Positions 14,321-14,993 of a stretch of DNA of 64,000 nt are shown here, one piece after another. A program made the translations under genes and the position numbers. The number at the start of each line of letters is the position of its first letter. The first letter of the stretch is position 1. The DNA comes from Eledone cirrhosa. Lineage: Eukaryota. Below the pieces are notes generated by a model. It was not told where the DNA came from, did no database searches, and worked only from the letters and a program-made list of their open reading frames with translations. The stretch is taken from assembly GCA_964016885.1 (NCBI GenBank), contig OZ024740.1:144088001-144152000 (forward strand). The letters run 5' to 3'.

Positions 14321-14993
14321 AGTATGTATACGTACATACATATATGTATACAGACGTACAGTAGTATGTATATATATATATACATACATGCACACATATA
14401 TATATAAGTACGTATGGATTCACCGAACATTTATTATAATGCTCGGTGTGTTTGTAAACAAACATCCCGTATTAAGCCGTAGTGTCTAGCAACCATCGTT
14501 GCTCGTTTGTTCAACACTGACAAAGGAACGCTGTACTAGTTTCAAGCTTATTAGCTATCGTCAGCAACGTATACCTTCCTGCCAGATGGTTGAACATCTG
14601 AAAGTATATACTTTCCTTATGCATATTAACGGCTGAGCAGCCTAATTTGCATATCGAGTGAATTAATCGGCCGGTGTACCGAAAACGATAAACGGAAAAA
14701 AATGAAATGAAATTTCATTTCTCACTCTTAGTACGGTTGTTACTTAAATATAAGTATGTATACGTACATACATATATGTATACAGACGATAGCTAATAAG
14801 CTTGAAACTAGTACAGCGTTCCTTTGTCAGTGTTGAACAAATGAGCAACGATGGTTGCTGGCCACTGTACAGCTTAATTCGGGATGTTTGTTTACAAACA
14901 CACCGAGCATTATAATAAATGTTCGGTGAATCCATATGTACATATATATATATGTGTGCATGTATGTATATATATATATATACATACTACTGT
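14321..14993. mobile_element. Probable Penelope-like pseudo-LTR remnant with inverted arms of about 205 bp
   Basis: Arms 14358-14562 and 14785-14993; 36-bp direct repeat at 14321-14356 and 14753-14788; hammerhead motif within the arm. Confidence 0.65.
14528..14570 (-). ncRNA. Minimal type I hammerhead ribozyme motif
   Basis: ACGUUG-CUGACGA-U-AGCU-aaua-AGCU-U-GAAA-CUAG-UA-CAGCGU; helix I ACGUUG/CAGCGU pairs with one G-U. Confidence 0.7.

Follow-up and report, generated by a model that had tools for sequence, protein, structure and literature searches.

Metazoan non-LTR retrozymes are described, in the part of PMC7229834 available, as non-coding tandem units of 150-450 bp with a GC content below 50% and one type I hammerhead ribozyme in each unit. 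The axolotl hammerhead HHR_Amex2 has a U·U at the base of helix II, and the same portion of that article describes an axolotl hammerhead with U·U at this place whose monomer reaches 22% cleavage in 1 h and whose dimer cleaves much better. In Xenopus, 42-44% of the retrozyme copies are intronic, and they are depleted relative to intron size (10.64898/2026.07.22.740005, in excerpt). Penelope-like elements (PLEs) leave inverted 5'-truncated copies with an optional tail at (TA)n targets (10.1101/2021.04.23.441226, in excerpt), and the optional tail corresponds to two start sites of the reverse transcriptase (RT) (PMC11167929, in excerpt). Here we compared these systems with a hammerhead motif in a ZSWIM8 intron of Eledone cirrhosa, within a stretch of 64,000 nt that we analyzed as a whole and call the window. 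We consider it likely that the motif is a copy of an abundant non-LTR retrozyme of ~430 nt, itself likely a two-armed insertion of the Penelope type, and that the inverted arm is predicted to prevent cutting of the pre-mRNA.

We read the motif directly on the minus strand from 14570 to 14528 and found every part that the preliminary description had listed for a complete hammerhead on the sense strand of a ZSWIM8 intron. Helix I pairs 14570-14565 with 14533-14528 over 6 bp, two of which are G-U. The core boxes are CUGACGA (14564-14558) and GAAA (14543-14540), and helix II has 4 bp (14556-14553 with 14548-14545), a loop AAUA and a U·U at its base (U10.1, 14557; U11.1, 14544). The bases CUAG (14539-14536) are followed by U16.1 (14535) and A17 (14534); the palindrome is the 6-mer ACUAGU, from A15.1 to U16.1, and the cleavage triplet is GUA with a predicted cut at 14534/14533. 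A descriptor requiring at least 5 bp in helix I, at least 4 bp in helix II and the core boxes returned this motif as its sole match in the window and gave one match in 300 locally dinucleotide-shuffled 64-kb windows. The motif is more than a chance occurrence. Rfam gave no hammerhead at the gathering score and none among its 66 matches up to E 10, which were AT-repeat noise. The folding energy of the 43-nt motif was unremarkable (z -0.49) and that of 121 nt including the extended stem had a z of -2.5. A weaker hammerhead-like motif occurs at 62831-62875 on the plus strand, with a short CG palindrome and a helix I of only four A-U pairs, and a similar one is present in another locus, L011.

When the motif was folded without the inverted arm, helices I and II formed with pair probabilities of 0.45-1.0, and closing A15.1-U16.1 in the monomer cost 5.4 kcal/mol. 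The predicted dimer had an energy of -19.4 kcal/mol as compared to 2 x -6.7 kcal/mol, and the double hammerhead lay 6 kcal/mol below two monomers. These folding results suggest that a proper helix III is probably beyond the reach of the monomer and that pairing through the palindrome as a dimer would be needed, in agreement with the dimer action proposed earlier. The proposal that the U·U lowers activity fared less well, since the U·U is the norm of the family and, in the available part of PMC7229834, an axolotl hammerhead with a U·U cleaves.

Features of the ZSWIM8 intron and of the retrozyme insertion in the window (u, position in the repeat unit)
Feature	Position	Strand	Basis
ZSWIM8 host intron, 3,936 nt, phase 1, GT..AG	13060..16995	-	exon matches, in-phase joining
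Upstream ZSWIM8 exon, 5' bound approximate	16996..17137	-	match to PDB 9rwz
Downstream ZSWIM8 exon	12884..13059	-	match to PDB 9rwz
Type I hammerhead	14528..14570	-	direct reading, descriptor scan with shuffles, folding
Extended stem prolonging helix I past an internal loop	14508..14596 (approximate)	-	folding; predicted in sister family B too
Octamer-like ATGCAAAT	14645..14652	-	sequence; kept in sister family B
Sense arm, 1.1 units (u390-433, then u1-433)	14313..14788	-	blastn against the unit and the references of the subfamilies
Inverted 5'-truncated arm (u182 to about u388)	14785..14993	+	blastn, sequence, MFE duplex
Head-to-head arm junction, 4-nt microhomology GACG	14785..14788	.	sequence; overlap of -4
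Internal fragment of an unrelated dispersed repeat, adjoining the inverted arm at its outer end with a shared GT	14992..15194	+	sequence comparison

We searched the 3.0-Gb genome with a 30-nt core pattern and found 11,269 exact matches (control, 0), while a 26-nt pattern from the 3' part of the unit matched 17,400 times. The 325 nt around the motif were found with 95-100% identity at 40 scored places, window included, from 1,758 candidates. The repeat unit occurs as monomers and as tandem arrays with a period of ~430 nt. It is non-coding, the longest ATG ORF in a unit trimer being 68 aa, and has a GC content of about 41% (base counts over u1-335); the architecture observed is tandem and not LTR-flanked. 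There are five subfamilies, each 94-98% identical to its consensus. The window copy belongs to the largest, subfamily 1, and departs from the consensus of that subfamily by about ten differences. On the sequence features tested, the window hammerhead thus belongs to a non-coding unit of ~430 nt that is a non-LTR retrozyme, which we call family A. One array of ~12 kb with a spacing of ~428 nt (G000:C1:51,773,316-51,785,327, L073-L088) is a candidate source locus for multimeric transcripts. Among the openly available papers listed, we found no published account of the family or of a ZSWIM8 intronic ribozyme.

A sister family B (L091-L120, G000:C1) has a unit of 466 nt and 9,443 pattern matches, and is found in ORF-less arrays and in long head-to-head arrays. 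Families A and B are homologous along the whole unit and have the core and ACUAGU in common. Helices I and II differ between them yet stay paired, and in B a compensatory change in helix II distinguishes two variants. The closing pair G10.1-C11.1 is absent from family A, where U·U is fixed at 10.1/11.1, and is present in family B as G-C; the homologous hammerheads with U·U and G-C therefore make a natural pair for comparing cleavage. Type I hammerheads follow a rule of tertiary contact between loop 1 and loop 2, or of U1.7 with loop 2; families A and B have both retained AAYA as loop 2, along with the internal loop past helix I. Upstream of the ribozyme there is a TATA-like palindrome at 14604-14611, with a counterpart in family B. 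Together with the octamer-like motif, this element may form a possible internal promoter of the snRNA type. A snRNA-type promoter has a precedent in newt satellite 2.

We also asked whether the unit could be the solo pLTR of an autonomous Penelope-like element, with the window holding two truncated pLTR scraps. The PLE-like ends, inverted arms and (TA)n targets described below speak for this reading, as do the RT and GIY-YIG ORFs present in some of the examined loci (GIY-YIG in locus L208, E 4.3e-6). We nevertheless regard it as quite improbable: the arrays consist purely of ORF-less units, sister family B takes the identical ORF-less array form, the motif is without the traits of the minimal hammerheads (min-HHR) found in pLTRs, and the PLE-like ORFs seen nearby are unrelated to it in their 3' regions and differ in their hammerhead. 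At one locus (L202:3100-9590, minus strand) we observed tandem Penelope-like ORFs, with RVT_1 below the cut-off; behind each of them lies a hammerhead whose helix II is long. These ORFs are unrelated in sequence to the retrozyme unit, and no autonomous PLE with sequence in common with the unit was found among the seven ORF-end regions compared.

A lack of core conservation among family copies was one half of the refuting condition set beforehand, and the motif passed on this half. We assessed conservation in 101 pieces from 60 loci, taken from about the first 100 matches on C1 of the 3' pattern, which lies outside the ribozyme. The core was intact in 65 of the 75 copies spanning the motif. It diverged at 12 of 825 sites (1.45%) as compared to 221 of 7,018 (3.1%) and 218 of 6,048 (3.6%) in the flanks; these counts are non-independent, as they include array members and one duplicated locus, and the base make-up of the core may be a partial cause of its low divergence. 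Helix II with its loop (3.1%) and helix I (4.3%) were no better conserved than the flanks. The helix I pair u177:u213 alternates among U-G, A-U, G-U and C-G and was paired in 60 of 65 loci, where shuffles gave a mean of 32.6 and none of 10,000 reached 60, although this covariation rests on about three subfamily events and not on 65. Taken together, the ribozyme is probably under constraint in the source lineage of the family. The subfamily-diagnostic sites also seemed to avoid the core (1 of 59, which is N7; P 0.010), and we gave this little weight, since most loci in this set had been selected via the core or for their similarity.

The window insertion consists of two arms joined head to head. 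The sense arm stops at the u433 end of the family, beside a short (TA)n at about 14306-14320. The inverted arm differs from it by seven substitutions and two 2-nt gaps, and its first 57 nt are identical. Because it is without the first CU of the core, it is not itself a ribozyme. In the ZSWIM8 transcript the inverted arm is antisense and covers the stretch from G5 through the cleavage site together with the 3' strand of helix I.

Such insertions are common in the family: head-to-head arms were present at 30 of the 65 position-ordered loci, and 38 of the 82 insertions with an intact ribozyme (86 loci) were two-armed. The 3' ends of the arms cluster at u433 and u56. We counted the ends by hand at 38 independent junctions, which remained of 42 rows once two duplicates, a low-complexity artefact and the window itself had been taken out, and found one arm ending near u433 and the other at u55-57 in 25 of them, while both arms never ended at the same site (0 of 38). 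The other 13 junctions have one non-standard end. The u56 end was followed by a TA repeat in 37 of 59 cases, and the optional tail amounts to 56 nt in family A. These ends, the inverted arms and the (TA)n targets bear out the Penelope relation recognized in the preliminary description, and the PLE insertion marks of the family support the proposed mobilisation of retrozymes by PLEs. A pile-up of 5' ends at a transcription start or cleavage site was also considered. Of 150 ends, about a dozen of them low-complexity artefacts, 8 lay within u174-182 and 2 within u208-212. All others were widely scattered, and we set this post hoc, weak signal aside.

The window insertion is not a textbook reciprocal pair, since its inverted arm ends at about u388 rather than at the usual u56. 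Its outer end abuts an older dispersed repeat, whose parts at 14992-15194 and 15999-16476 have a SINE-like element and the 3' fragment of a LINE between them. The upstream part of this repeat is absent from the window, indicating that DNA was lost at the junction. Twin priming is a mechanism that comes from work on LINE-1. It is attractive to explain the arm's outer end by twin or internal priming, the other arm starting at u390, but a later deletion fits equally well, since this end runs into the middle of the dispersed repeat just where the upstream portion has been lost. The window insertion showed no target-site duplication; a 44-nt direct repeat (14313-14356 and 14745-14788) was rejected as one because it belongs to the unit. 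In a test for an empty site, contigs of four and then two runs showed no joint that skips the insertion, and the exons were not covered in two other organisms, so that this result carries no weight. A palindrome at 14137-14252, with two abutting 58-nt arms that are 90% complementary, lies 60 nt away from where the retrozyme insertion ends.

If family A behaves like the retrozymes described so far, its source arrays may be transcribed into multimers, and paired hammerheads would cut these through a helix III formed by ACUAGU to give unit-length RNA, which may circularise. A PLE protein with RT and GIY-YIG activities could then copy more than one unit length from each side of a break within (TA)n. 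In the window, the cleavage site is present twice and uncut across the two arms, and the sense arm crosses the unit boundary from u390, which is compatible with a template that was either circular or a multimer left uncut.

The host gene was identified on the minus strand as ZSWIM8 by two matches to Pfam TPR_ZSWIM8 (E 1.7e-36 and 2.5e-34), and it spans more than 25 kb of the window. The exons flanking the intron match consecutive ZSWIM8 stretches in PDB 9rwz (774-810, E 3.2e-7; 818-875, E 3.7e-11) and join in phase over GT..AG at 16995-13060. The ribozyme lies on the sense strand of the gene, with its cut site 1,473 nt before the 3' splice site. With one family A core per ~270 kb genome-wide, a copy in a ZSWIM8 intron is unremarkable, and an intronic copy is ordinary given the intronic share of the Xenopus copies. 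Elsewhere in the window, a LINE at 4621-7743 on the minus strand retains an uninterrupted stop-to-stop frame of 1,040 codons that includes domains of an endonuclease, a reverse transcriptase and a PHD type; it lies on the same strand as ZSWIM8 and apparently within one of its introns. Between 46001 and 54000 the GC content falls to 7.5% and the GC skew reaches -0.99, probably reflecting long simple repeats.

We then folded the transcript with the inverted arm included. The pairing probabilities of helices I and II dropped to 0.0, and the ribozyme core lay in a predicted duplex of ~205 bp. Forcing the ribozyme to form against the arm cost 35 kcal/mol on emergence and 57 kcal/mol later (37 C), or 41-68 kcal/mol at 20 C; the inverted arm alone has a structure of its own of -63 kcal/mol. 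The earlier proposal that the inverted arm is transcribed first and sequesters the ribozyme was therefore in line with equilibrium folding, although the predicted duplex could be weakened by A-to-I editing, by bound proteins or by the kinetics of folding during transcription. Since the arms are joined 5' to 5' with both 3' ends outward, the antisense arm comes first on either strand. The lock thus follows from geometry, and no selection at ZSWIM8 is needed. When strand-directions with an intact sense ribozyme were counted (n=97), 53 were in two-armed insertions and 39 had a covering arm, and 34 of the 97 shared the window layout of one ribozyme with a covering arm. The built-in antisense lock of the preliminary description is thereby retained as a predicted block and given up as something special to ZSWIM8; it is best read as a by-product of insertion.

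The preliminary description had also suggested that the ribozyme could cut the nascent ZSWIM8 transcript. On this folding model we find that unlikely, because the one intact copy lacks a partner in cis and has its core taken up in a duplex, and because the 3' splice site is only 1,473 nt away. RNA polymerase travels at 1-3 kb/min. With monomer rates like those of the axolotl and the arm absent, a rough bound would be ~1% or less of transcripts cut before the next exon is made, an estimate that assumes a one-to-two-minute window when splicing may lag. The window copy is likely a harmless passenger and not a regulator of ZSWIM8, and for ZSWIM8 itself there is most likely no consequence.

The covering arm could instead be a selected safety catch, if hammerheads on the sense strand of introns harm genes and the survivors, the ZSWIM8 copy being one, are those with a covering arm. 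The arm does cover the rest of the core from G5, with its first 57 nt mismatch-free, and the predicted block is large. In the available portions of the respective sources, Xenopus retrozymes are depleted in introns (10.64898/2026.07.22.740005), and cleavage in a Cpeb3 intron lowers spliced mRNA while antisense blocking raises it (PMC10919898). Nevertheless, covering arms are common irrespective of genes (39 of the 53 strand-directions in two-armed insertions), and the 0 mismatches over the 35 nt covering the ribozyme are expected by chance (about 0.2, estimated from arm-arm divergence). Even with no arm over it, a single copy would probably be slow, given the cost of closing A15.1-U16.1 and axolotl monomers that reach 6-22% in 1 h in the part of PMC7229834 available. 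We therefore hold selection of this kind to be unlikely.

We judged it less probable still that the copy is a co-opted regulator, in which a share of the ZSWIM8 transcripts would be cut when the duplex loosens, for instance by A-to-I editing, and a trans partner pairs via ACUAGU, tuning the output of the gene. The sense orientation, intact core and extended helix I are compatible with this, families A and B have the same palindrome in thousands of copies as possible partner RNA, and CPEB3 provides a precedent for an intronic ribozyme tuning its host (PMC10919898, in excerpt). Against it, nothing in the copy, which is typical of subfamily 1, points to constraint, a trans dimer must exchange both strands of helix I against the ~205-bp duplex, and its short distance to the 3' splice site compares with 9,931 nt and a half-life of 2-3 min for Cpeb3 (PMC10919898, in excerpt). 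The two ideas can be joined: each two-armed insertion would be an antisense silencer for its hammerhead on either strand, selection would retain mainly the covered sense copies in introns, so that tens of thousands of ribozymes could be carried in one genome, and at ZSWIM8 editing could loosen the duplex and permit an abundant retrozyme RNA to cut in trans via ACUAGU. We think this improbable as well. If true, a filter for covered sense copies would explain how genomes tolerate very many intronic ribozymes.

We looked at the copies for scars of RNA editing, taking one copy per locus, and found A>G 111 times versus T>C 69 times (p 0.0045), a signal that we treated as weak and did not adopt. The counts were 54 versus 31 (p 0.022) after leaving out the subfamily sites and 33 versus 20 (p 0.10) for rare variants, with a single copy contributing 8. 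ADAR has a preference for the 5' neighbour, which the observed pattern does not fit. The copy at one locus (L199) has 8 A>G versus 2 T>C on the sense strand, a possible editing scar.

We therefore return to the copy as a retrozyme inserted in the Penelope manner and carrying its own antisense arm. Family A resembles the metazoan non-LTR retrozymes in unit size, in a GC content below 50%, in one hammerhead per unit, in thousands of monomers along with arrays and in a weak helix III, and differs from those known as a new sequence family. The window copy, with one intact motif, fails the two-unit rule of Li et al. for an active retrozyme, and two-armed insertions with fixed reciprocal ends are absent from the descriptions of retrozymes in the available parts of PMC7229834 and of 10.64898/2026.07.22.740005, the source of this rule. 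The insertion units of EN+ PLEs have 5' truncation, partial tandems, an inverted copy, two 3' ends and (TA)n targets in common with family A, which differs from them by having no RT/GIY-YIG ORF and a tail of 56 nt as compared to 30-40 nt.

The preliminary description had placed the motif among the minimal hammerheads of PLE pLTRs. It shares with min-HHR the type I topology, a palindromic 15.2-16.2 region, the dimer model and an expected low activity as a monomer. However, its helix I has 6 bp and an extended stem and its helix II has 4 bp and a U·U, whereas the min-HHR of S. mansoni has 4-5 and 7-8 bp (PMC4209133, in excerpt), and G10.1-C11.1, an additional base between 9 and 10.1 and an adjoining ORF are all absent from it. 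We found no sign of a pLTR setting either, with no ORF in the unit and no similarity to the seven PLE-like ORF-end regions. The motif better matches what the available text of PMC4209133 describes as 'canonical' in metazoans, and we accordingly moved it from the minimal class to a canonical-type motif in a non-coding tandem unit, that is, a retrozyme. The HDV-like ribozyme of CPEB3 is likewise intronic and on the sense strand, and there antisense pairing blocks cleavage (PMC10919898, in excerpt). In contrast to the window copy, it is of another ribozyme class, fast as a monomer and found at a single conserved locus, while the hammerhead in the ZSWIM8 intron is one of more than 11,000 copies.
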